Shown: piece after piece, positions 1-25,651 of the stretch | Numbering within the stretch: position 1 is the first letter of the stretch | Layout of the letters: each line of letters starts with the position of its first letter | Virus record (IMG/VR): IMGVR_UViG_3300009187_000027 | Span: 1-61,352 of that record | From: a virus | Taxonomy: Duplodnaviria > Caudoviricetes | Reading direction: 5' to 3' (one strand) | DNA length: 61,352 bases | Position numbers and translations under genes: made by a program | Notes under the pieces: generated by a model | What the model was told of the DNA's origin: nothing | The model's input: the letters and a program-made list of their open reading frames with translations, nothing else | Database searches by the model: none

Positions 1-315
1 GTGGGGGCTGCGAGCCAACCAGTTGAAGCACCCCTACGGTGCTGGCTACCGACCCTATCAGGCTGATGCGTCGGTCGCTGGGATATCCATCCCCAAGGAG
101 GCAAGGAAGCAATCGCTGTTCTCACCCGTCACGGCAGACATGCTGGCCCGCGATCCCCACCTCGCACTGCCCGGCGGCATCGACCAACTCAGGTACTACT
201 CCACCGACAAGCGGTTCGTGAACGGGCGAGGGCTAAACGCTGCGGGAGTCAAGTACACAGATGCCGAGGTCGCAGACATCCTCCAGAAGGAAGTCCTCGA
301 TCCCAACTCAGCGTA
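1..315. repeat. Terminal direct repeat, left copy (matches 61038-61352)
   Basis: Direct comparison: identical except at positions 86, 103, 158, 178, 211, 212. Confidence 0.97.
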
Positions 316-4144: not shown

Positions 4145-4978
4145 TTATGGGGCTTCATCCAGCGGCGGCGGCACCGGCACTGACTCGGTGAGTTGCGAGA
4201 AATCTATGTAGAAGCGGGCGGCGAGGAGAGGATTGCTGTGCCCGAGAAAGCGAGTGGCACTTCCCGGCATACGAGCCTCTAGGTGTGTGGCTGCCGAGCG
4301 TCTTAGCCACTGTATGGAGCCGTCTGCGATCCCGGCAGCCTTGCGAATTTTGCGAAACTCCCGGTGCATCTGGGTGGTCGAAATTGCCCAGCCGAAAAGC
4401 CTCCCGTCAGGGCTGATCTCGCCCAGCCGATGAAGCAGGTCTCTCGTCTTCTCTGAGATGGGACGCACCACCACCTGCCGGGTCTTGCCTGCGGTGACGC
4501 ACACAGCCCCTGAACGGATGTTCGTCCTCCGCAGGGCAAACAGGTCGCCACGCCTGAGTCCGGTCTCATAGCCGACTCGCAGAAAAGCCTCAAACCATAG
4601 GGCTCTCGGGCACCCAGACGGAGAAAATTTTCCTGTGGCCTCCGCCGATCTATTGACAAGCCGGATAAGATCGGATCGTGACCACGCGGGGACGGGCTCG
4701 CGGGGCACTCGGATGGCTGGGCACTTGGGTGGGTGGGCGATCAGCCCCTCCTCATAGGCCCACCTCCAGACAGCCACGATCATGCCTCGCCGGGCTGCGA
4801 GAGTGATCGGGCGATAGCGATTTCTCACGGAGGAGAGATGCGACCACACCAGATCACGGCTGATCGTCTCGCGGGTGATGCCCGCCTTCTCAAGGATGCG
4901 TCCAAGCGCCCGCATGTTGTGAGCGTACATCGCGCTCGTCTCGCGTGTTTTTAGGTATTGCTCGATTAGGTCTCGCAC
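4145..4978 (-). CDS. int: Tyrosine recombinase/integrase
   Basis: ETGLRRGDL (Arg I), GKT (Lys), QWLRRS (Arg II), LGHS, FY (Tyr); GTG start after GGAG. Confidence 0.88.
   Translation of the reverse strand: MRDLIEQYLKTRETSAMYAHNMRALGRILEKAGITRETISRDLVWSHLSSVRNRYRPITLAARRGMIVAVWRWAYEEGLIAHPPKCPAIRVPREPVPAWSRSDLIRLVNRSAEATGKFSPSGCPRALWFEAFLRVGYETGLRRGDLFALRRTNIRSGAVCVTAGKTRQVVVRPISEKTRDLLHRLGEISPDGRLFGWAISTTQMHREFRKIRKAAGIADGSIQWLRRSAATHLEARMPGSATRFLGHSNPLLAARFYIDFSQLTESVPVPPPLDEAP
4646..4671 (+). promoter_or_regulatory. Short-spacer promoter-like element B (antisense within int, facing the replication operon)
   Basis: CGATCTA TTGACA AGCCGGA TAAGAT. Confidence 0.55.
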
Positions 4979-5049
4979 TGCTAGACTCCACTGAACGCAT
5001 GTACATCTACATCTTTCTCTGACGGCGAGTGTTAAAAAGTTTTCCGCAC

Positions 5050-5970
5050 ATGTCAACCAACGAAAAAAACTTGGCCCTACTAAAAGCATGTAAGTCCCAC
5101 TCGCTGGCGGTCGGAGAGGCGTTCGTTCTCCGCGACCTGCCCAACGAGGACTACCACTCGCTCCCGATCCTGTCGAAGTCGCCAGCGTGGGACTTCCACC
5201 GACACGGGCCTCGCTGGTTCCAGCAGACCCGCATCACCAGAACCCAGCCTGCCTACGGGTCGCAGGCAATGCAAGACGGTACGCTCGTACACCTCGCTTT
5301 GGAGGTGACACCCCCCGTTTATCGGGCTAAACGCACGGTAATCCCCGAGGAGTACCAGACGGCGACCGGCGGGATGTCGCAGTCGAAGTCTGCCAAGGCA
5401 TGGCGGGCCGATCAGCCGCCCGACGCCCTGCTGGTGAGCCCGGCATCCGATGCGCTAGTCGAAGCCATCCTTGCCGAGGCGTTCACCAACCCGGCATTCG
5501 TGTCTCTGTACGAGCGTGTCGCTGAACGCGAACTCTCGGTGTTCGGCAGGCGACCGGACGGTCACCTCACTCGCTGCCGGTATGACGCGATCACCGAGGA
5601 CGGCATCGCGCTCGATTACAAGACAACGCGCGATGCCCGCCCGCTGGAGACATGGATCAAGGCTGTGATAGATCACGGCTACCACTTCCAGCAGTCGTGG
5701 TATCAGACGCTTGGAATTCTCGCGGGCGTTGTCAGCGACGAACCGCTGCACTTCATCACGCTGTCCACCACCGCACCCTATCAGGTGCAGGTCGTGACGC
5801 TGCCCGCCGCTCTTGTCGATCCGCAGGACGCACTGATCACTCGCGTACTCGATGAGATCGCCGCTCGCACAGAGACCGACTACTGGTCGCCAGATGGGTA
5901 CGGAGAGGTTCGGGAACTAGCGGTGCCTGCGTGGGCACTGCGTCAACTAGAGGAGAGCATCAATGGCTGA
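5050..5970 (+). CDS. PD-(D/E)XK exonuclease, RecE/ExoVIII-like (DUF3799)
   Basis: NEDYH..LSKS, GTLVH..LE, RCRYD, DYKTT, YHFQ..WY; adjacent to ERF. Confidence 0.85.
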   Translation: MSTNEKNLALLKACKSHSLAVGEAFVLRDLPNEDYHSLPILSKSPAWDFHRHGPRWFQQTRITRTQPAYGSQAMQDGTLVHLALEVTPPVYRAKRTVIPEEYQTATGGMSQSKSAKAWRADQPPDALLVSPASDALVEAILAEAFTNPAFVSLYERVAERELSVFGRRPDGHLTRCRYDAITEDGIALDYKTTRDARPLETWIKAVIDHGYHFQQSWYQTLGILAGVVSDEPLHFITLSTTAPYQVQVVTLPAALVDPQDALITRVLDEIAARTETDYWSPDGYGEVRELAVPAWALRQLEESING

Positions 5971-6646: not shown

Positions 6647-7058
6647 GGACTTAGACGAGATCGAGGGGCGGATCACGAACCTCCATCTGGAGTTTCTGCC
6701 GCAGATCGTGACGGTCGATGTGCCAGCCCTCATCTCAGAGGTGCGGCTGCTGAAGGTGCTGCTGTTCTCCAGCGTGGAGAGCGGCGAGGAGATCACGCAG
6801 GGAGGAGATGACGATGATCGCGACCACGACGAGGCTTTCGGGCAGCCAGTGCAGGACGGTGGAGACGCTCTACGAGGCGGGGAAGACGGTGAAGCAGGTG
6901 GCGTCCTTCACGGGGCTGACATTCCACCGGGTGCGGGCGCATCTGCGTCTGGTGGGCCTGATCCGACCGGGGGTGCGGAGCCCGAGGAAGCCCGACCCCA
7001 CGCCTTCGGAGATCGAGGAGCGGGCAGCCGCGATCAGGTCTCGCTGGAGTGCCTCTGA
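6633..7058 (+). CDS. Hypothetical protein
   Basis: GGAGGAG RBS; overlaps the next ORF by ~250 nt, so the 3' part is uncertain. Confidence 0.5.
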   Translation: MLTHEDLDEIEGRITNLHLEFLPQIVTVDVPALISEVRLLKVLLFSSVESGEEITQGGDDDDRDHDEAFGQPVQDGGDALRGGEDGEAGGVLHGADIPPGAGASASGGPDPTGGAEPEEARPHAFGDRGAGSRDQVSLECL

Positions 7059-7113
7059 GGCGGAGCGCCGCAGGCTTGGGCGTTCGGGCAGTGTCTTTGG
7101 GAGGGTCGCCTGA
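6808..7113 (+). CDS. Small helix-turn-helix protein
   Basis: LYEAGKTVKQVASFTGLTFHRVRAHL HTH pattern; RBS; stop overlaps helicase start. Confidence 0.65.
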   Translation: MTMIATTTRLSGSQCRTVETLYEAGKTVKQVASFTGLTFHRVRAHLRLVGLIRPGVRSPRKPDPTPSEIEERAAAIRSRWSASEAERRRLGRSGSVFGRVA

Positions 7114-11738: not shown

Positions 11739-12056
11739 ATGTACACTGGTCGGAAGTTCACGCATCCGCTGGATTGGATCGGGGGCAGGGACGCCCCCTT
11801 ACCCGACCGGATCGAGGCTCGCTCCCGCACCGCAGAACTGGTGTGCCTCATCCTGATCCTCGCCTTGATAGGAGCAGTCTATGGCGTCTGGCAATGGGCC
11901 TCGCGGTGGCGGCAAGCCTACGCGACGGCGGTCGCAGCGCGGAGCGTCATCGAATACGAGCCGCTCTCGGAAGCAGACCCAGCAGCAGGAGACGCCGCCC
12001 CCGGAAAGGGGAGTCGTGGCCTGTCTGGCCTTAGAGGCTGGAGATCGCGGCACTAA
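11739..12056 (+). CDS. Hypothetical membrane protein
   Basis: Single hydrophobic helix LVCLILILALIGAVYGVW. Confidence 0.5.
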   Translation: MYTGRKFTHPLDWIGGRDAPLPDRIEARSRTAELVCLILILALIGAVYGVWQWASRWRQAYATAVAARSVIEYEPLSEADPAAGDAAPGKGSRGLSGLRGWRSRH

Positions 12057-12207
12057 CCCCTGTCAGGGGTGTGATGCCCGAGCGGCGACGGTGCAGGTGG
12101 GCAGCACCGGGAGGCGTCTCCAGTGGCCCCTCTACTGCACCCTCTGCCACGAAAAGATGTGTGCCCGTGAGTGGCGTGACGCATCGTGGACTCGCTACAT
12201 GCGGTGA
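12016..12207 (+). CDS. Small zinc-ribbon protein
   Basis: CQGC and CTLC pairs; GGGGAG before GTG. Confidence 0.4.
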   Translation: MACLALEAGDRGTNPCQGCDARAATVQVGSTGRRLQWPLYCTLCHEKMCAREWRDASWTRYMR

Positions 12208-12210
12208 GTC

Positions 12211-12768
12211 GTGAGCCCATACACGCAGCGGCAACTCACGCCCGAGCAGAGTGCCAGAGCCGAGGACGCAGTCCGGTTTGTCGGGGTCTGCGTCCGCTCG
12301 TTCTTGAAGTCCTGCCCGAGTTATAGAAAGTTGGCGAGGGTCTGCGACTTCGATTCCGCAGCCCGCATGGCTGTGGTCGAGGCGTCCTTTACCTACGACC
12401 CGGCGAAGTCTCAGCCTCAGACGTACTACGGTTCGGCGGTGCGGCATGCCCTCCTCAAAGAGGTGCGCCGCTACCAGCGGAGCAGGGAGGGGGCTGACGA
12501 GAGAGTCTCGTTAGAGAGGGCCATGTCGGAGGCACCGGCACAGGCCCACCGGCAGGCAGGACTAGAGTGTCTAGCCTGCCTGCCGGATGAGGAACGCAGG
12601 CTGGTCGAAGCCCACGTTCTTGAGGGTCACTCGATGCTGGCTATCGGTCGCCAGATCGGCAGGGATTGGCGGACGGTCAAGGCACGACTGCGTCGGGCAC
12701 TACGCCGCCTGTCGGACTGTGTCGCGAGCGGGCAAACGACTGCGGATAACCGTAGCCCCTCGCCTTGA
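12211..12768 (+). CDS. Phage-encoded sigma-70-family (ECF-sized) sigma factor
   Basis: Region-2-like AVVEASFTYDPAK..TY...VR; region-4 HTH LPDEERRLV...GHSMLAIGRQIGRDWRTVKARLRRA. Confidence 0.82.
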   Translation: MSPYTQRQLTPEQSARAEDAVRFVGVCVRSFLKSCPSYRKLARVCDFDSAARMAVVEASFTYDPAKSQPQTYYGSAVRHALLKEVRRYQRSREGADERVSLERAMSEAPAQAHRQAGLECLACLPDEERRLVEAHVLEGHSMLAIGRQIGRDWRTVKARLRRALRRLSDCVASGQTTADNRSPSP

Positions 12769-13456
12769 TCGCGTCACGCACCGTTCGCCACGACCACCTC
12801 TTGGAGTTCGACCGCTTCCAGAACAGGGGGGCGTCCCCCGCTCTGGTCGCGATCTTCTGGAGGGACATCCCCTCGCCCAGCCAGCCAGCCATCTGGTCGA
12901 TGCGTGACCGCTCCTCCAGATCGGGCAGTAGGTAAGAGCCCTTGCCCGTGCCGTGCCTCGCCCAGCCGAACGGTATCTCCACGCACCTGCGACCAACCGG
13001 GACTCCCTTCGACTTCTTCAGCGCCATCACCTCGCGAGTCCGTTCGCTGGCGTACCTCCGCTGCATCTGAGCCAGAGCCAGCATCAGATGCAGCCCGAAC
13101 TCACCGAACGCAGTGGTCGAGTCGAACCCGATGTCGAGGGCTACGAACTCCACGCCTTTGGCCTTCAGAAGTTGGAGCGTGTTCACGCCACCCAGCAGGG
13201 AGCGGGACATGCGATCCAACTTGCTGACCACGATCACATCACCGGGCTGGGCCAGCACCCAGACCTTGGCACCCTCGATGCGGTCGGAGAAGTCCTTGCT
13301 CCCCGAGACCGCCGCATCGTAGTACCAGCCGCCGAGGGTGTAGCCCTTGGGCTGGAGGGTCTGCTGCCAGTAGCCCTCGCATGCCTTCCGCTGCACCTCC
13401 TCAGTTGCACTCTGCTTGTTGGTCGAGTGCCGACCGTAGCAATAGCAGACGCTCAT
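12677..13456 (-). CDS. Serine recombinase (resolvase domain plus short recombinase-like C-terminus)
   Basis: YGRHST..Q, D..VSG, GDVIVVSKLDRMSR, PFGW. Confidence 0.9.
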   Translation of the reverse strand: MSVCYCYGRHSTNKQSATEEVQRKACEGYWQQTLQPKGYTLGGWYYDAAVSGSKDFSDRIEGAKVWVLAQPGDVIVVSKLDRMSRSLLGGVNTLQLLKAKGVEFVALDIGFDSTTAFGEFGLHLMLALAQMQRRYASERTREVMALKKSKGVPVGRRCVEIPFGWARHGTGKGSYLLPDLEERSRIDQMAGWLGEGMSLQKIATRAGDAPLFWKRSNSKRWSWRTVRDAIKARGYGYPQSFARSRHSPTGGVVPDAVVP

Positions 13457-13848
13457 CGCATGGCCCTCCGCCTCTGGCGTTTCATCTCCATCCGCTGATC
13501 CCACCACTGGTCGTTGTCGTATCCGACGAACGCACCAGTTCTGGAGTCGATGTAGTAATCATCGAACTTCCACGCCGCCCTTCCCGCCGGGCCAAGCACA
13601 ACCTCCCTGCCGTCCAACTGCCCGGCCCAGTAGCCCGACCACGGGGTCGCCACCTCCTGCGGTGCCGAGTTCCACGGCAGGTCAGGGAACGGGACATCCA
13701 AGTCCCCGGCACATGCCGCACCGCCGAGCAGGCAGAGCAGCACCACGGGGATGCTATGCCGCGACTTGTGGCACAGCATGTAGTAGATCACGCCGTGCGA
13801 CAGAACCATCATCACGAACCAGCGAACGTCCTCAATGAACTCAGTCAT
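13453..13848 (-). CDS. Hypothetical membrane or exported protein
   Basis: GAGG RBS, hydrophobic segments, coupled to recombinase start. Confidence 0.55.
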   Translation of the reverse strand: MTEFIEDVRWFVMMVLSHGVIYYMLCHKSRHSIPVVLLCLLGGAACAGDLDVPFPDLPWNSAPQEVATPWSGYWAGQLDGREVVLGPAGRAAWKFDDYYIDSRTGAFVGYDNDQWWDQRMEMKRQRRRAMR

Positions 13849-13856
13849 CTCACACC

Positions 13857-14501
13857 TCATGCACTAGGGAGACCGCCGAACACGACGCTGCTACGAGCAG
13901 CATCGATCACCCAATCGACCGAGCCGAACTGCACCGCCCGATACTGCTGGCCCTGCCAGAAAACTGCGGGGCTGTGCATCAGCGACAAATCGAACATCAC
14001 GCAGTCACCGAGCCTGATCTCCCGTGGATCAGCGACGATGTCATCGGTCAGCGTCACGCCATCGGTCACTGGCTGGCGGACGCACAGCCACGGCTTCGCG
14101 AACGACGCGGCGTGGGAGCATCTGCGTTTGAGCAGGAACCCCCAGCACGGGACGATCATCGCACCGCCGACCACCTGCTTACCCTCTGTCGCGGCAGCCA
14201 TTGCGTAAGGCCACTCCGACCGCCAATCGTAGGGGTTCACCCGCCGCATGCCGACCTCCGTATCCACGCCCATCTGGCGTCGGAACCCGGTCATCGCGGA
14301 GTCCAACTGCATGGCGTGATCGATGACGATTGGACACCACGACGCCAGCACACCAGTTGCCTTGCGGTTGGTGACCGCAGCCTTGAGACCTTTCCGACCG
14401 AGCCTCCGCCAAATCCCCTCGACAGCCCCGGTCGTACCTACGATCTTCCGGTGCGTCTTATCGTAAGCCGCGACCAGTGATGGTCTGTCTATCCGCCGCA
14501 T
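13857..14501 (-). CDS. Hypothetical protein
   Basis: GGAGG RBS; in-operon position. Confidence 0.65.
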   Translation of the reverse strand: MRRIDRPSLVAAYDKTHRKIVGTTGAVEGIWRRLGRKGLKAAVTNRKATGVLASWCPIVIDHAMQLDSAMTGFRRQMGVDTEVGMRRVNPYDWRSEWPYAMAAATEGKQVVGGAMIVPCWGFLLKRRCSHAASFAKPWLCVRQPVTDGVTLTDDIVADPREIRLGDCVMFDLSLMHSPAVFWQGQQYRAVQFGSVDWVIDAARSSVVFGGLPSA

Positions 14502-14502
14502 C

Positions 14503-16008
14503 TCAGCCTCCCCTCTTTGCGAGTTCACAAACCTGCATCCACGACGGGATCGGGTACGCCCCGTCCCGCTGCCTGACCAGAGCCACGATCACCCTCGACT
14601 TCAGCCGCTGCTTGGGATAGGGCGTGATGCCATCGGTGATCAGGATCATGCAGTCAGGCTTGAGTTCCCGCTCGCATGCCTCCAGCACCACGCCCATGTC
14701 GGTGCCGCCACCGTGGCCCACCTTCATCGCCTTCGCAGACCTCACGACATCGCGAGAGTGGACTCGCGTGTCGCCCTGCACCACGGTCACCTGTCCGAGA
14801 CGCTTCACCCCCTTCTCGATCACGCCGAGGGCACGGTCACGCAACTCGCTCTCATACCCGAGTTGCATCGAGCCCGAGGTATCCAGCACCACCACCGCAG
14901 ATGGCGTCTGCTTGACCACGCCACGCAGGCGAGGCCCGTCCTCCTGCTGGCGACGAGAGAGCCGCCGCAGGGTGAAGTCGGGCCTGCCCACCGGGCTCGC
15001 AACCGCACGGCAGATGCGGGACAGGAGCAGATCGAACGGGTCAACCTGCCGGGTGAACCGCAGGTCGAGAGCCTCGACCAGTTGGCTGGGGATCGAGCCG
15101 GGCGAGCCAGCCTCGATCTCCTTGATCTTCTCCGCCAAGTCCTTGTCGGCAGCCCACTCACGCTCATCGTCGGTGCCCGAGTCGGGCTCCTCCCATGAAC
15201 GAGGGATGCCGTCAGCACTGCTGCTGCCCGGCGGGTCTACGTCTGCCTCATTCCCGCCATCGTCAGGGCTATCTCCGCCCTCCGCTGCTGGCCCGCCCTT
15301 GCCACCGTCACCATCCTCCGCATCATCGTCACCGCCCGCTGATGAACCGTCGCCTTCATCGTCATCCTCATCGTCGCCCTCGCCGGGCTGCGAGTCGGCA
15401 TCGCCATCGCCGTCATCATCTTCGCTCGATTCCTCCTCGCTCTCGGAGGGAACACCTTCGCCATCCCCGTCTTCGTCCCCGTCCCCGGCATCGTCGGACT
15501 CGTCCTGCTCGCTATCGTCATCACCGTCTGCATCTGACTCGGACTGATCGTCATCGCTCTGCTCCTCATCGTTAGGCTGCTGACGCAGCAGTTCGTAGTA
15601 CTCGGTCGCTGACAGGTTCGAGGGGAACCCGTCATCCTCTGCCACCATCACGCCACTCGGTGCATCGCTGATCCACTTCTTGAGGATTCCATTCACGACA
15701 TAGTCGCAGGCCACATTCCAGAGCCGTGCATTCTCGGCGGTCGGCTTCTCGCCAAGCACCCGTCGAGCGATGCGGGCATGGCCCAGCACCACATGCAGCA
15801 CCTCATGCAGGATCACGAACGCACCTGCCGGGGTGCTGATGCGGTCGGCAAACGCCGGGTCGAAGTAGAGATTCCCCCGAGCGTCCACCGCCGCAGTGCC
15901 CAGCCCCTTCCTCTCGTAGGTGGGCATGCCGTAGACCCGAGCCGCGAGATACGGCAGGATCAAACGGGATGCGATCTTCCAAGCGGTCACCTTCTCACGC
16001 GGTTCCAT
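14503..16008 (-). CDS. DUF2201-type metallopeptidase-like/VWA protein
   Basis: HEVLH, WNVACD..VN, acidic linker, MIDAS DTSGSM, GGGTD, ITDG. Confidence 0.9.
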   Translation of the reverse strand: MEPREKVTAWKIASRLILPYLAARVYGMPTYERKGLGTAAVDARGNLYFDPAFADRISTPAGAFVILHEVLHVVLGHARIARRVLGEKPTAENARLWNVACDYVVNGILKKWISDAPSGVMVAEDDGFPSNLSATEYYELLRQQPNDEEQSDDDQSESDADGDDDSEQDESDDAGDGDEDGDGEGVPSESEEESSEDDDGDGDADSQPGEGDDEDDDEGDGSSAGGDDDAEDGDGGKGGPAAEGGDSPDDGGNEADVDPPGSSSADGIPRSWEEPDSGTDDEREWAADKDLAEKIKEIEAGSPGSIPSQLVEALDLRFTRQVDPFDLLLSRICRAVASPVGRPDFTLRRLSRRQQEDGPRLRGVVKQTPSAVVVLDTSGSMQLGYESELRDRALGVIEKGVKRLGQVTVVQGDTRVHSRDVVRSAKAMKVGHGGGTDMGVVLEACERELKPDCMILITDGITPYPKQRLKSRVIVALVRQRDGAYPIPSWMQVCELAKRGG

Positions 16009-16045
16009 CGCAGTCTCCTTTCTGTTGGTTGTCGTTCCGAAACAA

Positions 16046-17173
16046 TCAGCCAATCGTCGTTCGCTTCTTCAGTTCGATCAGCGGCTTGAGGGCGGCAGCC
16101 TTGGGGGCGTAGCCCTTCTCGCTGGCGATCCGCTGGAGTTCCCCGGTGTGGCGGAGTGCCAGTTCGGGGGACGCCCTCTCACCCACGGTGGCGAGGAACT
16201 TCGCCGCCGCATCCCATCGGTCGGGGCTGAAGTCCCTGCCCGAGAGGGTCGCCATCACCGCACCCGTCACGGTGATCGTCCGGTCGGGACGAGCCGGGTC
16301 GTGGGCGAACGTGACGAAGCCGTCGAGCAGGTCAACGGGGTTGACCAGATCGTTGGCAGCCCGCCATGTCACGAACTGAAGCGTGGCGTTGTCGCCAACG
16401 CAGCCCTCGACCATCGACCGCACCATCTTGCTGCCGACCGTCATGTCGCAGCCGCATGCATCGGCGGCGGCGAGGCAGCGGACAGCGTTCGACCACGACC
16501 GTTCAGTGGGGTACGCCCACTGCGAGTCATCCTCTGGAACAACGGAGTCGAGGTTGTCCGACGCCGTCAGGAAGTCAGCGAGCAGGCCACCCCACCGCTC
16601 GACGCAGCCGCTCTGATCCCAGTTGGTGGGCAGGGTCGGGAACACGGGGTCTTCCCACTTGAGGGTGCGGAGACCAGACAGCCACGCCTTCCTATCCTTC
16701 TGCCACTGGGCGTGGAAGAACCTGTTCACCGTGGGCAGGGACAGCGGCTGCCCGTTGGGCGTGATCGCCGCCGGGTTGGTCGCCGCGATCACCACCGTAT
16801 CCCTCGACAAGTGGAAGTCACCGACCCGCAGGTCTTGAATCAGCGTGAGGAACGCTGCCTGCACGGCAGGTGCGACCGCACACAGTTCATCGAGGAAGAG
16901 CAGGCCACCCGGAGTGAACAGAGCCTCCGCCCAGCCCATCGGCAGCATTCGGCAGAGACCCTTCGCGTTGTCGGGCACCGGCAGACCGCCGATGTCCTCC
17001 GGGGAACACTGCGTCCCGAGCAGCGTGACGAACCGACGCTTCAGCGAGCGGGCCATCGCGTTGATGGTTGCCGTCTTGCCCGCACCCGGCGGGCCGACGA
17101 GCAGGACGGGGACGCCCGCCATCGCAGCGATGAGGGCGGGAAGCATCGGGTGATCGAACACAATCGCAAACAT
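16046..17173 (-). CDS. MoxR-like AAA+ ATPase
   Basis: GPPGAGKT, LLFLDEL, AATNP, NRF; adjacent VWA gene. Confidence 0.9.
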   Translation of the reverse strand: MFAIVFDHPMLPALIAAMAGVPVLLVGPPGAGKTATINAMARSLKRRFVTLLGTQCSPEDIGGLPVPDNAKGLCRMLPMGWAEALFTPGGLLFLDELCAVAPAVQAAFLTLIQDLRVGDFHLSRDTVVIAATNPAAITPNGQPLSLPTVNRFFHAQWQKDRKAWLSGLRTLKWEDPVFPTLPTNWDQSGCVERWGGLLADFLTASDNLDSVVPEDDSQWAYPTERSWSNAVRCLAAADACGCDMTVGSKMVRSMVEGCVGDNATLQFVTWRAANDLVNPVDLLDGFVTFAHDPARPDRTITVTGAVMATLSGRDFSPDRWDAAAKFLATVGERASPELALRHTGELQRIASEKGYAPKAAALKPLIELKKRTTIG

Positions 17174-17251
17174 GTGAGAGACTCCTGTGGGAACCATCGA
17201 ACCCAGCGGGGAGGAACACCCTCCCCGCAAAACAATCAGCCAATCGCCAGA

Positions 17252-18118
17252 TCAGGCGGAGATATCCGCCAGTTCCAGCATCGCGAACTTCGTGTCGAGT
17301 GCCTCGACCACCATCGCGACCTCATGCAGACCGACGCCGAACATCTGCTGGTAGGCAGCGATCTTCTGCTTCGCGTTCTCGATGTCATCCTTCCTGCGGG
17401 CGATGCCGCCCTTGGTCATGTCGTGACCGGCGAGCAGGTCAGCCTCCAGTTCCGACCGCATCGCAGCGACCTCCGCCGTGAACGCCCGCACCGCCTCGCG
17501 AGCGATGTCGGGGTTGTCCAGCAGCGGGAACCGGGCCACCGACAGACGCACCTCCGAGTCGGGGTTCGCTGGCCCCTCCTCGATCTGCCTTGCCAGATCG
17601 GTGAACGTCTGGAGCAGACCACCAGCGAGGAAGTACACGCCGCCGCCGTCACGCAGCGACGTTGCCGACCACGCCTTGGTCATGGCCCTGACGAGCAGGC
17701 TGCCCACGGTGGACGCCTCGTAGTAGTCGAGCCGATCCCGGTAGATCGTCTCGATCTCCTGACCACCCGTGATGGGCAGGCCCGCGAAGGTGACCGAGAC
17801 CCGGTCGCTGGCGTCCGCCTTGACCGTGAACTGGTAGTCGTGGGTGTTGCTCTCGACCCCCTTGGTCTCACGCAGCACCTCGAAACCCAGCACCGCCCGG
17901 TCGAGCGGCACGATCTCCCACCTCGACCTCTTCCCCGCCTTGCCGAGGTGCTGCCTGATCGCACGACCGAGGGCCATCGCCCTCTTCTCCCGGCGGGGCA
18001 GCAACTTGCTGAGACCGAGGGACATGAACGCCCGGTCGAACACCGTCTTGCGGCAGCGACCGCTGTTCAGAACGACGAGAGCCCCATCGGCGGACGGGGG
18101 GATGGAAAAAGAACGCAT
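17252..18118 (-). CDS. Conserved hypothetical protein upstream of MoxR/VWA (DUF6744/DUF3150-like)
   Basis: LRDGGGVYF motif, C-terminal coiled coil, gene context. Confidence 0.55.
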   Translation of the reverse strand: MRSFSIPPSADGALVVLNSGRCRKTVFDRAFMSLGLSKLLPRREKRAMALGRAIRQHLGKAGKRSRWEIVPLDRAVLGFEVLRETKGVESNTHDYQFTVKADASDRVSVTFAGLPITGGQEIETIYRDRLDYYEASTVGSLLVRAMTKAWSATSLRDGGGVYFLAGGLLQTFTDLARQIEEGPANPDSEVRLSVARFPLLDNPDIAREAVRAFTAEVAAMRSELEADLLAGHDMTKGGIARRKDDIENAKQKIAAYQQMFGVGLHEVAMVVEALDTKFAMLELADISA

Positions 18119-18171
18119 GGGAAAACTCCTTGATGGAGGTGAAGAAAACAAAGGCATCACGCGATGCCAAT

Positions 18172-18202
18172 AAAAAAGGGACGCACCACAACGGTGCATC
18201 CC
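18172..18202 (-). terminator. Intrinsic terminator
   Basis: GGGATGCACC-GTTGT-GGTGCGTCCC followed by TTTTTT. Confidence 0.75.
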
Positions 18203-18228
18203 AGTGTCCAACACAGGTCAACAGATCG
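18203..18228 (-). promoter_or_regulatory. Short-spacer promoter-like element E
   Basis: CGATCTG TTGACC TGTGTTG GACACT. Confidence 0.5.
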
Positions 18229-18247
18229 ATCCGAATCAATCAGCCAA

Positions 18248-18775
18248 TCAGCAACTCGGCAGTGCCGAGAACACTGCACTCGCCGCGATGTCCTTGCCCT
18301 GCCGCTGAACCGAGCGGAGGGTGGAGCCCCGGCAGAAATTCGACTGCCTCTCCCCGCACTCATCGACCCGAGAGAGGTACTTCACGAACACGGTCTTCAC
18401 CTTCACGCCCTTGACCGCTCGCTCCATGACACGCATCTCCACGGTGCGGATGGTGCCACAGCCCTCGATCACCTCGACCTCGATCACCCTGCCGCCGAGG
18501 CCCACGCCACGAATGTCTGCCCGCCAGCAGAGCATGTGCCACTCGGGCTGGTCGTGCATGCAACGCACGGTGTAGGTGGCACCCATGATCGCCCTCTTCC
18601 AGCCGATGCGACCGAACTTCTTCCAGCCCTCCTCAGTGGAGAGGCTGGCCTCGCATCGCGACAGCAACTTGGTGCGGGTCACGGCGAACTTCGTGCCCCC
18701 ATACCAGTGGAAACCGCCCATGTTTGGGCTCGTCGTGATCCACCACCTCGACTTGTCTCGCGTCTTGCCCATCAC
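18248..18775 (-). CDS. Hypothetical protein
   Basis: Coupled to upstream stop; own stop fused to the 13-mer repeat. Confidence 0.65.
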   Translation of the reverse strand: MMGKTRDKSRWWITTSPNMGGFHWYGGTKFAVTRTKLLSRCEASLSTEEGWKKFGRIGWKRAIMGATYTVRCMHDQPEWHMLCWRADIRGVGLGGRVIEVEVIEGCGTIRTVEMRVMERAVKGVKVKTVFVKYLSRVDECGERQSNFCRGSTLRSVQRQGKDIAASAVFSALPSC

Positions 18776-19179
18776 TAGCCCTCCCCGGATGTGTCAATGG
18801 TCACGTTGCCGAACTTCAATTGCCCGTCCTCGCTCTCGCTGACAAAAGGGAACGGGATGTCCACGATCTGCCCCAGTTTCTTGACCTTGGCCTTCGTCTT
18901 TCGGTCAAGGTGCGAAGCCTTGACGCAGCCGATGGTTCCAGAGTCAACGCTGTACTCCCGACCCTCGTTGTCCTCGTAGATCCCGTCGCCATACGCGGTG
19001 CCGTGATAGGCCACCTCGATGCCGCCCTTCAGAACGAACCTGCCCTCAAAACATTTGTTTCGATTGGGCCCGGTTCGGATTGGGTACATGAGTTTCAGCA
19101 ACTCGTCCCACTGTGCGTCGGTCAGCACATAGCACAGATCACCGACGTAGTACCTTCCTTCAGGCATTCGCTCGCTCAT
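18775..19179 (-). CDS. Conserved phage hypothetical protein (DUF4241-like)
   Basis: YYVGDLCYV...TAYGDG.Y...VDSGTIGC; GGAGG RBS. Confidence 0.7.
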   Translation of the reverse strand: MSERMPEGRYYVGDLCYVLTDAQWDELLKLMYPIRTGPNRNKCFEGRFVLKGGIEVAYHGTAYGDGIYEDNEGREYSVDSGTIGCVKASHLDRKTKAKVKKLGQIVDIPFPFVSESEDGQLKFGNVTIDTSGEG

Positions 19180-19269
19180 CTCGTTGTCCTCCAGAAACAC
19201 AGCGACCCCGGTCAGGTAACGCACCTGCCGGGGTCGCTGTTGGTTGTGTCTTCCGAATCAATCAGCCAA

Positions 19270-19509
19270 TCATGCGATGCCGACGATCTCCATCGCCCGC
19301 TCCGCATGGTCTCTCTCGCACCACGCTACCGCCTCCGCCTTGGTCTTGACCAGCGGCGGGTAGATCGCCTTGTTGCCCTCATGCCTCGCCGCCTGCCAGC
19401 CCTTGAAGGGGGCCGGTCGGAGGGCATAGGTCACGCCACCTCCAGCATCCGCCTCCCACCAGCGTCGATCCGAGCCGATGTAGTACCGCCGCCTCCAACT
19501 CAGCATCAC
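19270..19509 (-). CDS. Hypothetical protein
   Basis: GGAGG RBS; stop fused to repeat. Confidence 0.65.
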   Translation of the reverse strand: MMLSWRRRYYIGSDRRWWEADAGGGVTYALRPAPFKGWQAARHEGNKAIYPPLVKTKAEAVAWCERDHAERAMEIVGIA

Positions 19510-19859
19510 TCACCTCCCTTCACGATGGAGTCCACCTCGTCGGTCATCGAACGCAGTAGGGTGCGGGCAGCGTCAGCCACCTCGCGGTGCCGCTCGTAGT
19601 CCCGCTCGATGCAGTCGGTCACCCGCTCAACGAGCCAGTGAACCCAGCGATCCCCGTTGCAAAGTTGCACTTGCCGGTGCAACTCACGCAGCATGGCGAT
19701 CAGCGGGTTCTTGCCAACGAACCCGTCCTCCCGCATCCACTGGCGGATTGCATCAATCTGCCGGTACACGCCGACTTCTGTGAACGCCTCAGTCTTCGTC
19801 CACTTCACGAACCTCTCGACCATCGCATCGCTAACGTCATACGTTGAACGCTTCGCCAT
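19506..19859 (-). CDS. Hypothetical protein
   Basis: AAGGA RBS downstream of repeat. Confidence 0.7.
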   Translation of the reverse strand: MAKRSTYDVSDAMVERFVKWTKTEAFTEVGVYRQIDAIRQWMREDGFVGKNPLIAMLRELHRQVQLCNGDRWVHWLVERVTDCIERDYERHREVADAARTLLRSMTDEVDSIVKGGE

Positions 19860-19909
19860 TGCATCATCCTTTCCTGTTGGGGTTGAATCGATCCAGAACA
19901 ATCAGCCAA

Positions 19910-20497
19910 TCACGAACGCTTTGCCTCCAGCACCACCCACTTCTGTGCCGCATCTTCCAGCGACATTGCGAAGTAGTTCTCGCCACGCAGCACGACCTGT
20001 TCCAGCACCCGCCCCGCCTCATCGCAGGTGGCGGCGACGATCTCGTTGAACTCAGCCAACGATTCGACGCTGCCGAGGCACAACTTCAGGTTGAGCGTCT
20101 GGCCCATCAGCGGAAGGGCATCCATCAGATCACCGAAACTGTCATCGCCCCGGTCGAATGAGAACCGAGCCTTCTCGCAGGCGGCGTATGCCTTGCGCGT
20201 GTAGTGCGACCACGACAGGGCGAAGTGAACCGCCGCCGCGAAATCGCCACCACCCACCACGGCACACCTGAAGAACTCGTCCGCCGCCGCCTCAACGTAG
20301 CCCTCCTTCCGATGCGTCATCGTGTCGAGCAGCACCTCGCGGAACCGCACGACCACATGCCAGAAGTGTTCCGGCTGCATGGGAGGGACGCCACGCTTGA
20401 AGTCCATGAAATTCTCATCGAACTCAGACCGGGCATCGCTGAACGCCTTGGCCTGCTTCATGATCTTGCTGGTCAGGATGCTCGTTGCTTTCGTCAT
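19910..20497 (-). CDS. Hypothetical protein
   Basis: AAGGAG RBS; stop fused to repeat. Confidence 0.7.
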   Translation of the reverse strand: MTKATSILTSKIMKQAKAFSDARSEFDENFMDFKRGVPPMQPEHFWHVVVRFREVLLDTMTHRKEGYVEAAADEFFRCAVVGGGDFAAAVHFALSWSHYTRKAYAACEKARFSFDRGDDSFGDLMDALPLMGQTLNLKLCLGSVESLAEFNEIVAATCDEAGRVLEQVVLRGENYFAMSLEDAAQKWVVLEAKRS

Positions 20498-20541
20498 CGT
20501 CAGTCTCCTTTGGAGGGTGTGAATCGAACCCGTCAAACCAA

Positions 20542-21105
20542 TCAGCCACGCGGACGGCAGTCCCGAAACATCCAGACCGGGGAGGACTTGGTGCCGCCCA
20601 CCTTCATCGCACTGTGCATGGGCACGCCGAGCGCGCTGCGGCACAGTTCGTACACCTCGTAGTCGCTGCCCGCGTGGTGGCGTGGGCTGGACGGGTGATT
20701 GAGGATCACCATGCCGCCGTCACGCACGGCACGTCCGATCTGTTTGAGCGTTTCACGCATCATCGCCACCGAAGACTGCACGTTCATCACGTTCGATGCG
20801 AAGACGAGGTCGTACTCACCGGGGTGGATGATCAGCCCCGTGTAGTTCTTGCCGAAGTCGTACTCGTGAACCTTCGCCTCGGGGTGAGCCTTGCGGATCA
20901 TCTCCGAATGCAGGAAGTGCCCGTCCTTCCCCGGCTTCCCGGCACCGAAGTTGAGGATGTTGTGGAACCCGATGCGGTTGCCGACAGAATCGGCGTGTAG
21001 CAGGTCGATCACGACACGGGGGACAAGAGCGCGGGCACCAACGGCACCAGCACTACGGGCAGTGGCATTGGCACGAGCGATGTAGTCGAGGGTCATCGAT
21101 TTCAT
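20542..21105 (-). CDS. Class I SAM-dependent methyltransferase-like protein
   Basis: ILNFGAGK motif I; YDLVFASNVMNV. Confidence 0.7.
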   Translation of the reverse strand: MKSMTLDYIARANATARSAGAVGARALVPRVVIDLLHADSVGNRIGFHNILNFGAGKPGKDGHFLHSEMIRKAHPEAKVHEYDFGKNYTGLIIHPGEYDLVFASNVMNVQSSVAMMRETLKQIGRAVRDGGMVILNHPSSPRHHAGSDYEVYELCRSALGVPMHSAMKVGGTKSSPVWMFRDCRPRG

Positions 21106-21190
21106 TGGGGAGCCTCCGAAAACGCAGCGACCCCGGCGGGAAACGCTCCAGCCGGGGCCGCTGCAATGGGTGTTCAGATCAATCAGCCGA

Positions 21191-21670
21191 TCAGTCGCTG
21201 ATCACCACCGAGGTGACCTCGCATGCCACCATCCCTGCGTCGATGCCGAGGGCCAGCAGCACAGCCACCGCTGCATGGCACCCCGTTAAGGCGGCGATTG
21301 CCTCGTAGCAGTGGGCAATCGAGAGCATCAGCACAGCCACGCCGATGGCCCCGGTGATGCGAGCGAGGCTGTAGTGCCGCCGCCGATGGGTCAGCCCCGC
21401 CACCTTGCCCAGCAGCAGGACGAGCAGCGGGATGACGGCACCCAGCACGACCGCCGCCCACTGCAAACCCTCCGGGGCATGCCGCGATCCCGCCCACGCA
21501 TTCAGTGCCATCGACAGCACCGCCGAAACGGTGACGTAGAGCAGGCACCAGCGGGCCAGACCGTCACGCCGCCGGATGGTGGTGCGGGGGGGCTGCGTCT
21601 TCCGACGCCGAGACTTCTTCTCGGTGGTGACGGTGGTGACGGTGGGAATCCTGTTGATCGTGTCGATCAT
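21191..21670 (-). CDS. Four-helix membrane protein (DUF2637-like)
   Basis: Four hydrophobic segments, LS..N and GID motifs. Confidence 0.6.
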   Translation of the reverse strand: MIDTINRIPTVTTVTTEKKSRRRKTQPPRTTIRRRDGLARWCLLYVTVSAVLSMALNAWAGSRHAPEGLQWAAVVLGAVIPLLVLLLGKVAGLTHRRRHYSLARITGAIGVAVLMLSIAHCYEAIAALTGCHAAVAVLLALGIDAGMVACEVTSVVISD

Positions 21671-21764
21671 GTGGTGAACCTCCTGAAACGCGACAGGCCA
21701 CGAACTGGAACGCCCAGCCGTGGCCTGCCGCAGTGTGTGTGTCCGAACCAATCAGCCGAACGGA

Positions 21765-22742
21765 TCAATGGCAGCCGATAGCCACCACTCCGGGGAAGAC
21801 GAACGTGCCATCGGCTTTCTTCGCACCGCATGCATGGGCGTTCTCGCCCTTGTGCGTCACGCAGGCACCGCACTTGCCCGAGCAGGACAATGCCCGCTCG
21901 TAGCCCAGAGCCCGAGCGGCTTCACGCACCGCCCGGTGATACTCAGGATCGTCGTAGCGGTCGTAGCCCTTGGCCTTCCGCATGAACTTCTTGTCGATGT
22001 ACACCGACAGAAACCGCTCACGGGTCACGGGCAGACCGAGCATCTTCTCCATGAATTCGGCATCGCCGTCGTAGATCGATCCGCTCGACACGTTTAGAAC
22101 GTAGTTGTCGGGGAACGCGGCACCCGTGGCATGCCAATCCATGAACAGCCCCCACGACTTGGAGTACCCGTAGCACAGAACGTCGGGCCGCTGGCGGAGC
22201 ATGTTCCACCAGAATTGCATGGTCGAGAGGGAATCGAAATCGCCGTCAACGTACAGCCGGAACGTGATGTCCACGGGCAGCACCTTGAATGCGTCGATGA
22301 TCGCCCGCCGATTGAACCGCAGCAGCAGGGTATTCATGAGTTGCCGCAGATAGCCGCCGGGCGTCCGCCATGCTTTCTTGGAGTAGCACCACTTGGCACA
22401 ATCGCCCGCACCTGGGCATGTGACGATGGGCAACGCCGAGAACGCCACGAACGGCAATTTCATGTTGCCATGCATGGCGAAGATGGCGAACGGCAGACCG
22501 CCGTCCCGCATGCACTGGACGAACCGCAGCATCTCTTCACGCCATCCCCGAGGGGTAGCGGAACCGGCACGGCGGGCAGCCTTGCGATTCCTCTTCTTCT
22601 GCGATGCACCGGGCAGTGTGATCGGCAGAGTGAGAGCGACAGCCTCGATGCATGCCAGTGCATCATCGAGCGTTTCAGCCCGCATGCACTGCCATGCCAG
22701 ATCGAGGGCACGTTGATTCGAGAACTTGGGAGCGTAGCCCAT
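21765..22742 (-). CDS. GP88-like Cys-rich (Fe-S/radical-SAM-like) protein
   Basis: GNMKL...TCPGAGDCAKWCY, FRLYVDGDF, YGYSKS, C-terminal CSGKCGAC. Confidence 0.7.
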   Translation of the reverse strand: MGYAPKFSNQRALDLAWQCMRAETLDDALACIEAVALTLPITLPGASQKKRNRKAARRAGSATPRGWREEMLRFVQCMRDGGLPFAIFAMHGNMKLPFVAFSALPIVTCPGAGDCAKWCYSKKAWRTPGGYLRQLMNTLLLRFNRRAIIDAFKVLPVDITFRLYVDGDFDSLSTMQFWWNMLRQRPDVLCYGYSKSWGLFMDWHATGAAFPDNYVLNVSSGSIYDGDAEFMEKMLGLPVTRERFLSVYIDKKFMRKAKGYDRYDDPEYHRAVREAARALGYERALSCSGKCGACVTHKGENAHACGAKKADGTFVFPGVVAIGCH

Positions 22743-22835
22743 GTGAGCCTCCATGAAACGCGACAGCCCGCAGCATGGAAACGCTCCACGCTGCGGGCTG
22801 TCGGGGTGTGCAAAACAATCAGCCGAATGAACGAA

Positions 22836-23162
22836 TCAGCGGGGGCGGGCAACGACCTCATGCCCGCCGCGATTCACCTCGATCATGCCGCCCTCGGCGG
22901 CGGCATCGCAGAGGGCGTCGAGGCAGCCCAAGGAGATGATCTTGTCGGTGTAGTCCTCGCCGCCCCTGCAATACTTCATCGAAGCATGCTGTTCCCCGAC
23001 GGCGAGACTGCGGAGCGTCGGAGACACACAATGCTCGATCACATCGTCGCTCCACGTTCCACTCCAATGCTGTTGAATGTGGTCGAGCAGTTGGGAGAGG
23101 TTGCAGACGTATCGGCGGACGCTGTGGGTCTGATGCTCAACGGTGACGAGAAGGAATCGCAT
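22836..23162 (-). CDS. Hypothetical protein (first gene of the accessory array)
   Basis: AGGAGA RBS downstream of repeat. Confidence 0.65.
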   Translation of the reverse strand: MRFLLVTVEHQTHSVRRYVCNLSQLLDHIQQHWSGTWSDDVIEHCVSPTLRSLAVGEQHASMKYCRGGEDYTDKIISLGCLDALCDAAAEGGMIEVNRGGHEVVARPR

Positions 23163-24033
23163 GGTGGTGTTCTCCTGTTTGGGTGTTTGGGTCTCACAGA
23201 ACAATCAGCCAATCCCAAAAGCCCACTAGGCTTGTCGCATGCTGCGACGGTCTTGCCATAAACCTTGTGCGGGGTCGTGGTGACACGGGCCGCGATGGCT
23301 GGTCGAAAATGGATGACGGTTTGGGTCTTCGCTGGGACATAAACCAAGCGAGAGACTTTGGGATCGCGGTACGCACATTCGGCCCCGCGTTCCGTTGCGG
23401 TCGTGCGGAAGTCCTTGCCCCGCCGCGAGTTGCGTCCGACCCCCGGCCCGGCCCCCCGCCGCATCGGCCCCCATATAACGCTCGCCCTCGCTATTTTTCC
23501 CCAAAAAACCTCATCGCCGCAGCGCATCTAAACCAAGCCCTCTCGCTGCCCGCCAAAAGCCCGATTGCTGAACAGGCGTTCACTTACCCTCCCCAGACCT
23601 GAACGCCCGTCTAATCGCATCCTAGAGCCTCACAGAGGCATGCCCGTCTTCGCCACCCTCTCTCCACAACATTGGCATGGAGGAGACATGGAGTACGCAG
23701 AAGAGTGGGACGAGCAGGACGATGCCCTCAGTGAACTCATCGAGTTCCTCTGAGCCGCTTGATCGCGACCGTCGCTACTTCGGAGACCCGTATGACCTCT
23801 TCACCGGCAGCCAGCCGTTCGGTGACCCCAACGCATGGCTCCCAGAGTCGGTGGACGCCAAGTCGCACTCGTTGCTCTATCCGCTGGGCATGGGCTGGTC
23901 GGAGTTCCGCCCTCCTGTGATCGAGCCCGCAGCCCCTGCGGAGCCGTCGAGCATTTCCCTTGCCATCTTCGCCATCGCCATCCTCTGGCTCATGGCTGTG
24001 CGTGATTTCATCCTCGCAAGAATTTTTGACCGT

Positions 24034-24059
24034 CGATCTGTTGACCTCACTCGTAGGCT
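24034..24059 (+). promoter_or_regulatory. Short-spacer promoter-like element D, upstream of ssb
   Basis: CGATCTG TTGACC TCACTCG TAGGCT, ending 47 nt before the ATG. Confidence 0.6.
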
Positions 24060-24106
24060 GGGTGAGAACGGGACGCGAGAGCCCGTGACACCCAGAGGAG
24101 AGAGCA

Positions 24107-24478
24107 ATGATCGAGGCGACAGTGGTCGGCAACGTGGGCCAGAAGCCCGAACTTCGTGAGACCAAGACCGGGAAGGTGATGTGCCGGTTCTCGGTGGCAT
24201 CGACCTACAAGTCCAAGCAGGGGGAAGAGGGCACCACAACGTGGGTCTCTGTCCTCTGCTTCGATGAGATGGCTGCCGAGGTGGCTGCCAAGGCTGACAA
24301 GGGCCAGCGTGTCGTGGTGACCGGCAGGCTGGAACTGGAGAAGTACGAAAAGGATGGCGTCGAGCGGCAGTCGCTGACGATGCTCGCCAACGAGGTCGGG
24401 CTCTCGCTGCGGTTCCCGCCGCGTGGTGCCAAGCCGAAGAACGCTGATCCCGAGGCGGAGTGGACTTCGCCCTTCTAG
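24107..24478 (+). CDS. ssb: Single-stranded DNA-binding protein
   Basis: VVGNVGQKPELRET..G, FSVA, KGQRVVVTGRL, C-terminal ...SPF. Confidence 0.93.
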   Translation: MIEATVVGNVGQKPELRETKTGKVMCRFSVASTYKSKQGEEGTTTWVSVLCFDEMAAEVAAKADKGQRVVVTGRLELEKYEKDGVERQSLTMLANEVGLSLRFPPRGAKPKNADPEAEWTSPF

Positions 24479-24501
24479 GACTCCTGTGGGGGAGGTGAGC
24501 C

Positions 24502-24750
24502 GTGCGTCAGAAGGAACTGACCTTTTTGAGGACTTTGCTCAAGCAGCCCTCATGCGGCATAGACGCCGACACGGCTCGCCTCCTTTGCCTTCTCGGTGCC
24601 TCAGTGGTTTTGGGCACCAACGCGATCCCCATGTGGTTAGAGGTCTCGATTGAGCGGCACATCCGAGGATTCGATGCGGCGGGAGATAGAGCGTCTCCGC
24701 AAGGAAGTCGAGAGACTGAGGGAACTTCTACGAAAGGCTGGCTGGCCTGA
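24502..24750 (+). CDS. Hypothetical protein
   Basis: GGAGG RBS; stop overlaps next start. Confidence 0.5.
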   Translation: MRQKELTFLRTLLKQPSCGIDADTARLLCLLGASVVLGTNAIPMWLEVSIERHIRGFDAAGDRASPQGSRETEGTSTKGWLA

Positions 24751-25223
24751 TGTTTGACGAGATCAAGGAAGACCTCGCTGAATTGAACCCGTTTGCCCTG
24801 CTGGCTGTGGGTCTTGAGGACGCCCTGATCGGCTACACCCTCAACCACCACGACCCGATTCGGGCGGTCTACGACTACAACAAGTGCCTCCGAGTCCTGA
24901 TGGAGCGGGACGGCATGGACGCGGAGGGTGCCGATGAGTTCCTCTCGTTCAACACCCTTGGTGCCTTTGTCGGCACCGATGGCCCGCTGTACGTCCGACT
25001 GCCCGACCTTGAGGAAGAGGTTAAGAGGCTCACCGACGAGGAGCGTGAGGCTGTGGATATTGCGTGTATGAATCTTGCGGAGACAGTCCGCAGGGGGCGA
25101 CAGAAGCAGGACGAGTACATGCAAGAGGGAGATTTGGAGGGGGGCAAGTGGACAGAGAAGGGTGTAGTTTCTCTGGTTCAAGCCCGCGACACGCTCCGCT
25201 CGCTGCTGGAGAGGCTGAAATGA
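24750..25223 (+). CDS. Conserved phage hypothetical protein
   Basis: GLEDALIG...AVYDY.KC...DGM....A.EF..FN..GA.VG. Confidence 0.75.
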   Translation: MFDEIKEDLAELNPFALLAVGLEDALIGYTLNHHDPIRAVYDYNKCLRVLMERDGMDAEGADEFLSFNTLGAFVGTDGPLYVRLPDLEEEVKRLTDEEREAVDIACMNLAETVRRGRQKQDEYMQEGDLEGGKWTEKGVVSLVQARDTLRSLLERLK

Positions 25224-25651
25224 GTGAACCCGTAGAACATGCCGCAGGCACAGACATCACCGCCCGCCTCACCACATGGTGCCACGCTCCACAGGCGGCG
25301 TCGGCTCAAGACATCATGGACGAGGCGGCGAGGGAGATTGAGCGGCTGCGCTGCGTTACAAAACCTCTGCCAAAAGAAATTTGGGCAGAGCATTCGTTAC
25401 ACCCCACCGACGAGGAGCGGCGAGTCCTGCGCGATCTGCGAGACAGTTACGCCGCCGAAGACGATCAGGAGTGCAACCGGATCGCGTCGGTGCTGCACGG
25501 GCTTCTGGAGAGGCTGAACTGCCGAGAGAACTTCGGTAGTTCGCCACACCTCTCCGAGCGTGACCGGGACTTACTCCGGTTCGCCGCCAACACCATCGGG
25601 GATGCTGACTGCTCAGAACTCTTCCGCAGGCTGCTGCGGGTTCTTGGTTAG
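25220..25651 (+). CDS. Hypothetical protein
   Basis: ATGA overlap; EAAREIERLR. Confidence 0.6.
   Translation: MSEPVEHAAGTDITARLTTWCHAPQAASAQDIMDEAAREIERLRCVTKPLPKEIWAEHSLHPTDEERRVLRDLRDSYAAEDDQECNRIASVLHGLLERLNCRENFGSSPHLSERDRDLLRFAANTIGDADCSELFRRLLRVLG

Follow-up and report, generated by a model that had tools for sequence, protein, structure and literature searches.

Short oriented repeats in the intergenic gaps of phage non-structural regions have been described for few cultured groups, and their function is mostly unresolved. The lambda nut site (boxA-boxB) and the ops site of RfaH are read during transcription; each combines a linear element of fixed orientation with a spacer and a hairpin whose pentaloop is defined. 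Three closer systems are described in published accounts, of which we cite excerpts. The PeSLs (promoter-early stem-loops) of T4-type phages carry a sigma-70 consensus promoter (PMC2839356). Stoperators, in the Cluster A mycobacteriophages, number 20 to 30 and occur all along the genome, at the repressor locus and the operator of the early promoter as well; their consensus differs between related temperate phages and co-varies with the repressor (PMC6550527). The SAS elements of Cluster K mycobacteriophages lie 3 to 7 bp before start codons and include the Shine-Dalgarno (SD) sequence. About half of them adjoin an inverted repeat, with a consensus that differs between subclusters; their function is left unresolved there, and the authors found little support for the ESAS hairpins (PMC3203893). 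Here we analyze the 9-mer GGCTGATTG, which is repeated ten times in IMG/VR virus record IMGVR_UViG_3300009187_000027. The window, meaning the whole stretch of DNA analyzed, is this complete record of 61,352 bp, and the count of the motif in it is the whole-genome count. Our best reading is that the copies belong to composite leaders, which stand between the genes of a single accessory-gene operon in a temperate phage.

A preliminary description of this DNA had reported an invariant motif in ten copies, all on the minus strand, six of them as a full 13-mer, and had noticed it nowhere else. This proved correct. All 10 of 10 copies are on the minus (sense) strand inside 16043-23210, and dinucleotide shuffles give a mean of 0.71 copies and a maximum of 3. 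The 13-mer occurs without a mismatch six times genome-wide, and the whole-genome scan of both strands returns no 9-mer beyond the ten, which span 7.2 kb of a single operon. Aligned, the ten sites share one conserved 18-nt block, GATTGGCTGATTGnTTyG, and the continuation past the 9-mer that had been described is borne out by an invariant T at +10 and an invariant G at +13. From -50 to +70 around the aligned sites, a second conserved or promoter-like block is absent. The sites are asymmetric, with a best arm match of 5.40 of 10 versus 5.43 in shuffles, meaning no dyad symmetry. The best copy (copy 8) is a tandem 8-mer. We claim no similarity of the motif to the consensus sequences of IHF, DnaA, CcrM, MotA-box, ECF or boxA. 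Within the operon, the motif is present in all nine junctions with a gap of at least 37 nt and in none of the five tight junctions (gaps of 8 nt or less), in a region that is 90% coding. A degenerate 13-mer with two mismatches at 13904-13916 (minus strand), in the 3′ part of g13 and 47 nt before its stop, is possibly a decayed site. Among the matches listed in a scan of viral contigs, the motif was single-copy or, in one locus, on opposite strands. The literature matches listed for the 9-mer string were unrelated primers or sequences, and among the papers listed for a keyword search, none described a class of stop-associated phage repeats.

Nine copies had been placed at or near a stop codon and the tenth ahead of the first gene, cutting the region into units of one or two genes. 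The positions of genes and motifs (Table 1) agree with this. The upstream stop lies inside the 9-mer at two sites (g4, g11), 2 nt before it at four (g3, g5, g7, g9), where the stop is the TGA of the upstream half-repeat, and 7 to 11 nt before it at three (g1, g2, g10). Copy 1 has no upstream gene and stands 39 nt before the ATG of g1. From the 9-mer to the next ATG, the distance is 34 to 118 nt. Because the distances to the stop and to the ATG both vary, and copy 1 has no gene upstream, the simplest explanation for the link to stop codons is that genes are compacted against a module headed by the TGA-containing motif. A role of the motif as a source of stop codons in every frame was rejected: on reading the sequence, its TGAs account for two of the three.

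Four relatives, G001, G006, G007 and G008 (complete or near-complete, 57-63 kb), were found through the terminase (65-66% identity) together with an alignment of the operon's ATPase, and a second backbone alignment returned the same four. The best tblastn matches of the ATPase were only about 25% identical, a single-protein scan with it gave no match, and neither did megablast against cultured phages. G001, G006 and G007 have an array of this kind in the homologous operon, again on the sense strand, with the frame GGCT-NNNNG-TT(C/T) and other cores: GGCTAGTAG five times plus variants in G001 (core AGTAG), GGCTTGTAG five times in G006 (core TGTAG), and mixed GGCTGAnnG cores in G007. In each of these relatives, copies in stop-to-start gaps are confined to the homologous operon, and matches of the loose frame pattern outside it are apparently due to chance. 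G006 and G007 are the closest pair, with most proteins 85-99% identical. At their six orthologous sites, 16 of 24 positions in the 4-nt core are different, compared with 0 of 42 in the frame and 52 of 252 in the flanks; indels inflate the flank figure, which is an overestimate, and Fisher's test gives p = 5.8e-6. A single identical core in G006 takes the place of five different ones, which are ancestral or sister cores. Identical G006 cores cannot be drift, and they are hard to obtain by conversion because the site-specific flanks were kept. The core is genome-specific and changed in concert within an invariant frame. It is mainly this concerted change in G006, with frame and site-specific flanks retained, that leads us to infer a sequence-specific reader.

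These observations favor, at a tentative probability of about 0.4, a motif that a phage-specific factor would bind on DNA, as an operator or roadblock; shuffling of the PeSL kind would be a by-product. Each leader runs from the upstream stop through the oriented 18-nt motif, a C/A-rich linker, an optional hairpin of about 19 bp with a GCGUU apex and the SD to the start codon. The core would be the specificity part of the predicted binding site for a phage-encoded, sequence-specific factor, and the motif would most likely act on DNA as a stoperator-like operator or roadblock, keeping or shutting the operon off. The hairpins may act on the RNA of the downstream gene, through stability, processing or translation. 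Because the modules are repeated, they could also, like PeSLs, be points of short-homology recombination for the gain, loss and movement of accessory genes.

Judged from its sequence, a small helix-turn-helix (HTH) protein (Table 1) is a candidate reader of the motif, as a lead only. Its G007 orthologue matches HTH_psq at E = 2e-4, and its atlas neighbors partly carry HTH_23. The protein is 33-47% identical in all pairs of genomes, while between G006 and G007 its neighbors reach 86-91% identity; relatives also differ in its putative recognition helix. Several points weigh against the operator. The grouping of the HTH protein (G001 near G006, G000 near G007) differs from the core groups. The other early operon has no copy of the motif, and neither has the neighborhood of any regulator gene. 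The cores of G007 and G001 are heterogeneous, so strict core specificity is not general, and one G006 junction is a hairpin leader without the motif. Elements at equivalent positions in the more distant G008 look promoter-like, which favors a promoter. Finally, an RNA-level site would agree just as well with the restriction of the motif to the sense strand, its proximity to stop codons and its lack of pairing.

This last point bears on the strongest rival. The optional hairpin of the preliminary description is real: a long GCGUU stem follows the motif in four leaders, a shorter stem at site 17241 and a terminator-like stem at site 18245 (copy 8), making strong hairpins in 5 of 10 leaders and a shorter one in 1 of 10. 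The four long leaders form near-perfect hairpins of about 19 bp (z-scores -3.2 to -4.5), which are set off from the motif by a spacer of 15-19 nt and stop 5-8 nt before the SD. The short leaders (34-41 nt from 9-mer to ATG) are C/A-rich; those of g5 and g6 fold more weakly than 198-199 of 200 shuffles, and those of g1 and g12 fold the same as shuffles. The motif is unpaired in every predicted fold. Across four genomes there are 15 GCGUU-apex hairpins with at least 16 pairs, all on the sense strand of the homologous operon. The 12 we analyzed have a common apex and stems of 13-22 standard pairs, which exchange GC, CG and AT at ranks 4-8 and 12-14 with pairing kept. Stem sequences covary, and the apex stays fixed. 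One hairpin is almost the same in four genomes, yet the gene that follows it differs in each, and some GCGUU hairpins have no motif before them.

The motif may thus be read at the RNA level or co-transcriptionally, on nascent RNA or the non-template strand, as a processing site of a sequence-specific endoribonuclease or as a nut/ops-like site of antitermination or anti-polarity at the point of ribosome release, with the hairpin as a boxB-like or stabilizing partner. In favor of this are the sense-strand restriction within one transcription unit, the unpaired motif and the weak folding of two of the four short leaders, the stop codon no more than 11 nt away, and the order of motif, spacer and fixed-pentaloop hairpin, which resembles boxA-boxB. 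The strong terminator-like hairpin with a T-run, within about 35 nt of copy 8, also lies inside the operon. However, no NusG-like or Q-type antiterminator was detected in the phage, and Rfam 15 returned no family match (best E-values 0.79 and 0.85, far below gathering scores). A host factor would not account for cores that differ between close relatives, and known nut, put and ops sites number one or two to an operon. We regard an RNA-level role as doubtful, although it is the best of the alternatives.

The operator must also be set against a promoter. G008 has no motif; it has another oriented repeat (17792-25340, plus strand) at four to five gaps of the homologous operon. This repeat consists of a -35-like TTGA(C/G)G, TTGACG among its forms, a conserved 16-nt spacer and nATTGTG, a -10-like block that contains TG and partly resembles the window motif; a hairpin comes after each. 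If the motif were likewise the core of a factor-dependent promoter, each cassette would be its own transcription unit and a true equivalent of a PeSL, whose anatomy of AT-rich stop region, promoter, stem-loop, SD and start fits as far as it is described in excerpts of PMC2839356. The position of copy 1 ahead of the first gene agrees with this, as does a 185-aa sigma-like protein (12211-12768, plus strand; Sigma70_r4_2, E = 6e-11), convergent with the operon end and encoded in 5 of 5 genomes. It has no match to the region-2 family PF04542 and is probably a middle or late regulator. We rejected it as the reader of the variable core: its recognition helices are nearly identical across genomes with different cores, and this speaks against the promoter as well. 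So do the single 18-nt block with no second element, the terminator-like hairpin so close to copy 8, and a consensus scan of the minus strand of 12000-24500 that found no sigma-70-like site, for a consensus that may not be the host's. A T7-type polymerase (PF00940) gave no match, but the control also matched nowhere. Overall, a promoter is unlikely. As a separate observation, a -35-like hexamer, TTGAC(A/C/G), is kept upstream of the family C gene g10 (window 18118-17252, upstream region) in the window, G001, G006 and G007; in the window it overlaps the terminator-like hairpin, and it may be an internal promoter.

The remaining rivals concern movement of the genes. The operon has a backbone of the GP88-like gene g2, of g6, of g10, the MoxR-type AAA ATPase g11, the DUF2201 metallopeptidase/VWA gene g12, g13 and the serine resolvase g15, interleaved with the genome-specific g1, g3, g4, g5, g7, g8, g9 and g14. 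Beyond the GP88-like protein, g11, g12 and g15, its genes belong to no family, apart from a single PHROG match for g8, to a family without assigned function. In PADLOC, g1-g10 have no match and g11 has only generic AAA matches. The preliminary description had proposed a cassette-like system for regulating or shuffling early accessory genes. The layout and the gene turnover support the cassettes, since 8 of the 15 genes have no homologue in the operons of the four relatives. Four indels between G006 and G007 were read at base level. One, an extra G007 cassette, begins exactly at a motif and is bounded by a 20-nt repeat of the gene's 3′ end; two have linker/SD or SD/start repeats at their boundaries; and one falls between an SD and the next gene.

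Contigs of other samples (runs X3 and X6) add further joints, interpreted where contigs cover the array. In a 540-nt X3 contig, which comes from another strain, 16038 and 20530 are joined through two intervening letters. It links the end of g11 and its motif to the g5 leader, and the position of the crossover is resolved only to the motif and the few bases that follow. The match of a second X3 contig is confined to 22740-22843, which is the intergenic module of g1/g2, with unlike sequence to either side. An X6 contig omits g8 precisely, and this loss is flanked by other short junction repeats. We did not use the joints 15502/16756 (X3) and 14832/20320 (X6), which have short sides or possibly come from other organisms. 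Gene indels and replacements between close relatives therefore fall in modules, that is, at the motif, the linker/SD or a gene end. Because the breakpoints are mostly at other module repeats and only some at the motif core, the exchange points are the modules more than the 9-mer itself, and the idea of shuffling at the motif holds in that reduced form.

Two proposals would give the motif a more direct part in exchange. Frame and variable core could together be the recognition site of a phage-private cassette system, in which a fast-evolving factor reads a 4-5-nt "address" common to the junctions of one genome. If this were true, regulation of the accessory array and cassette exchange would be limited to phages with the same address, a heterospecific integron-like or immunity-like barcode; we think it improbable. 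Least probable of all is a dedicated system of site-specific recombination, by the serine resolvase or the integrase, that excises and inserts cassettes with the motif as its crossover site and the core as a lox/FRT-like spacer matching between sites: direct oriented repeats do bound the units of one or two genes, the core is hypervariable within an invariant frame and yet homogeneous within two genomes, the 540-nt contig has a junction such as a circle, a duplication or a moved cassette would produce, the extra G007 cassette begins at the motif and the resolvase gene closes the operon, but the sites have no dyad symmetry, 18 nt is short for such sites, other junction repeats flank the g8 loss and three of the four indels between G006 and G007, and ten direct sites would be unstable, yet two samples contain near-identical arrays. 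The resolvase is also kept in G008, which lacks the motif, and a dedicated role for it is not supported.

Table 1. Positions of the operon, the motif copies, the GCGUU hairpins and the candidate reader in the window
Feature	Positions	Strand	Remarks
Operon g1-g15	12677-23162	-	15 genes
Motif copy 1 (18-nt block)	23197-23214	-	Upstream of g1 start
Motif copy 2	22811-22828	-	11 nt past g1 stop; then GCGUU hairpin and g2 SD
GCGUU-apex hairpin	22760-22802 (approximate)	-	19 pairs
Motif copy 3	21744-21761	-	Past g2 stop; GCGUU hairpin; g3 SD
GCGUU-apex hairpin	21690-21733 (approximate)	-	19 pairs
Motif copy 4	21175-21192	-	Past g3 stop; GCGUU hairpin; g4 SD
GCGUU-apex hairpin	21123-21165 (approximate)	-	17-18 pairs
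Motif copy 5	20534-20551	-	Includes g4 stop codon; short unstructured g5 leader
Motif copy 6	19894-19911	-	g5 stop overlaps upstream edge; short g6 leader
Motif copy 7	19254-19271	-	g7 stop overlaps upstream edge; then hairpin common to three relatives; g8 SD
GCGUU-containing apex hairpin	19199-19240 (approximate)	-	16-18 pairs
Motif copy 8	18232-18249	-	g9 stop overlaps upstream edge; then terminator-like hairpin 18202-18178
Motif copy 9	17228-17245	-	Past g10 stop; short hairpin; SD of g11 (ATPase)
Motif copy 10	16038-16055	-	Includes g11 stop codon; short g12 leader
Small HTH-like protein	6808-7113	+	Between ERF and helicase

The phage is podovirus-like, with matches to SU10-type portal and adaptor proteins. 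The serine recombinase at the operon end, the sigma-like protein and the second, tyrosine recombinase (4145-5089, minus strand) that the preliminary description had listed are all present. Because integrase, resolvase and sigma-like gene each occur in 5 of 5 genomes, the family is probably temperate; scans of genome collections returned no prophage relatives. Beside the integrase, 3412-4095 (minus strand) is a window-specific moron-type gene, with one homologue found, whose product has a signal peptide and a C-terminal tail that we take to be PEP-CTERM-like; it hints at a Gram-negative host. No tRNA genes were found in the genome. Between the operon and the divergent SSB gene, about 900 nt (23204-24107) are without a convincing open reading frame (ORF) and contain, by eye, three short repeats of the GGTTTA type; in the relatives this place is taken by a membrane protein and an antisense HNH gene. 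The segment 10875-11366 (plus strand) encodes a MazZ-like dATP/dGTP diphosphohydrolase domain (E = 5e-12), and a PurZ-type adenylosuccinate synthetase was not found in the same genome. By tblastn, the HNH and MazZ genes are both in 5 of 5 genomes. At the start of the record, an 840-aa ORF (23-2545, plus strand) matches the C-terminal two-thirds of a G007 protein of about 1240 aa, and judging by this alignment the record may have been linearized inside the gene; the ORF has no sequence match in Pfam, PHROG or PDB.

This uncultured freshwater family amounts to a natural experiment, with a frame that is invariant, a core changed at every site of one genome, flanks that were kept and a separable hairpin of fixed apex. 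Given the invariant frame, the whole-genome core change and the separable hairpin, a pair of cis element and trans factor should therefore be findable. The array also shows at base resolution how repeated leaders channel gene shuffling. The motif tags a set of mostly uncharacterized accessory genes, and such a tag could guide the discovery of their functions; viral anti-defense genes have been found through shared regulatory sequences, according to an excerpt of PMC11065993.

How, then, does the array compare with the systems known from cultured phages? The analogies to stoperators and PeSLs drawn in the preliminary description are apt as working likenesses, not as memberships. The described parts of the PeSL system (PMC2839356) match in anatomy: repeated intergenic modules start from the upstream stop in an AT-richer stretch, continue with a stem-loop and end in SD and start codon. 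PeSLs are concentrated in plastic regions next to ORFan genes, and at these modules close relatives differ by gain, loss and replacement of genes, the same picture as the module-level exchange points here. In contrast, our array has one 18-nt block without -35/-10 features, its stem-loop stands directly before the SD and has a fixed GCGUU apex, its core is genome-specific, and the phage is temperate and podovirus-like. Stoperators, as excerpted from PMC6550527, are likewise short asymmetric sites, oriented with transcription, mostly away from promoters and many per genome; our 10 sites are confined to one operon, away from any regulator gene, and the motif has no sequence similarity to stoperators. 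The SAS/ESAS elements, in the excerpt of PMC3203893, share a 13-bp asymmetric repeat in one orientation among non-structural genes only, but our motif abuts the stop codon, 34-118 nt before the start, and its hairpin stems covary, whereas hairpins in ESAS had little support. Compared with lambda nut, the stems are about four times longer, and no N, Q or NusG-like gene was found in the phage. Integron attC, res/hix and lox-like sites differ in having inverted-repeat arms, which the motif lacks. The element works like the PeSL, stoperator and SAS/ESAS systems but fails a defining feature of each.

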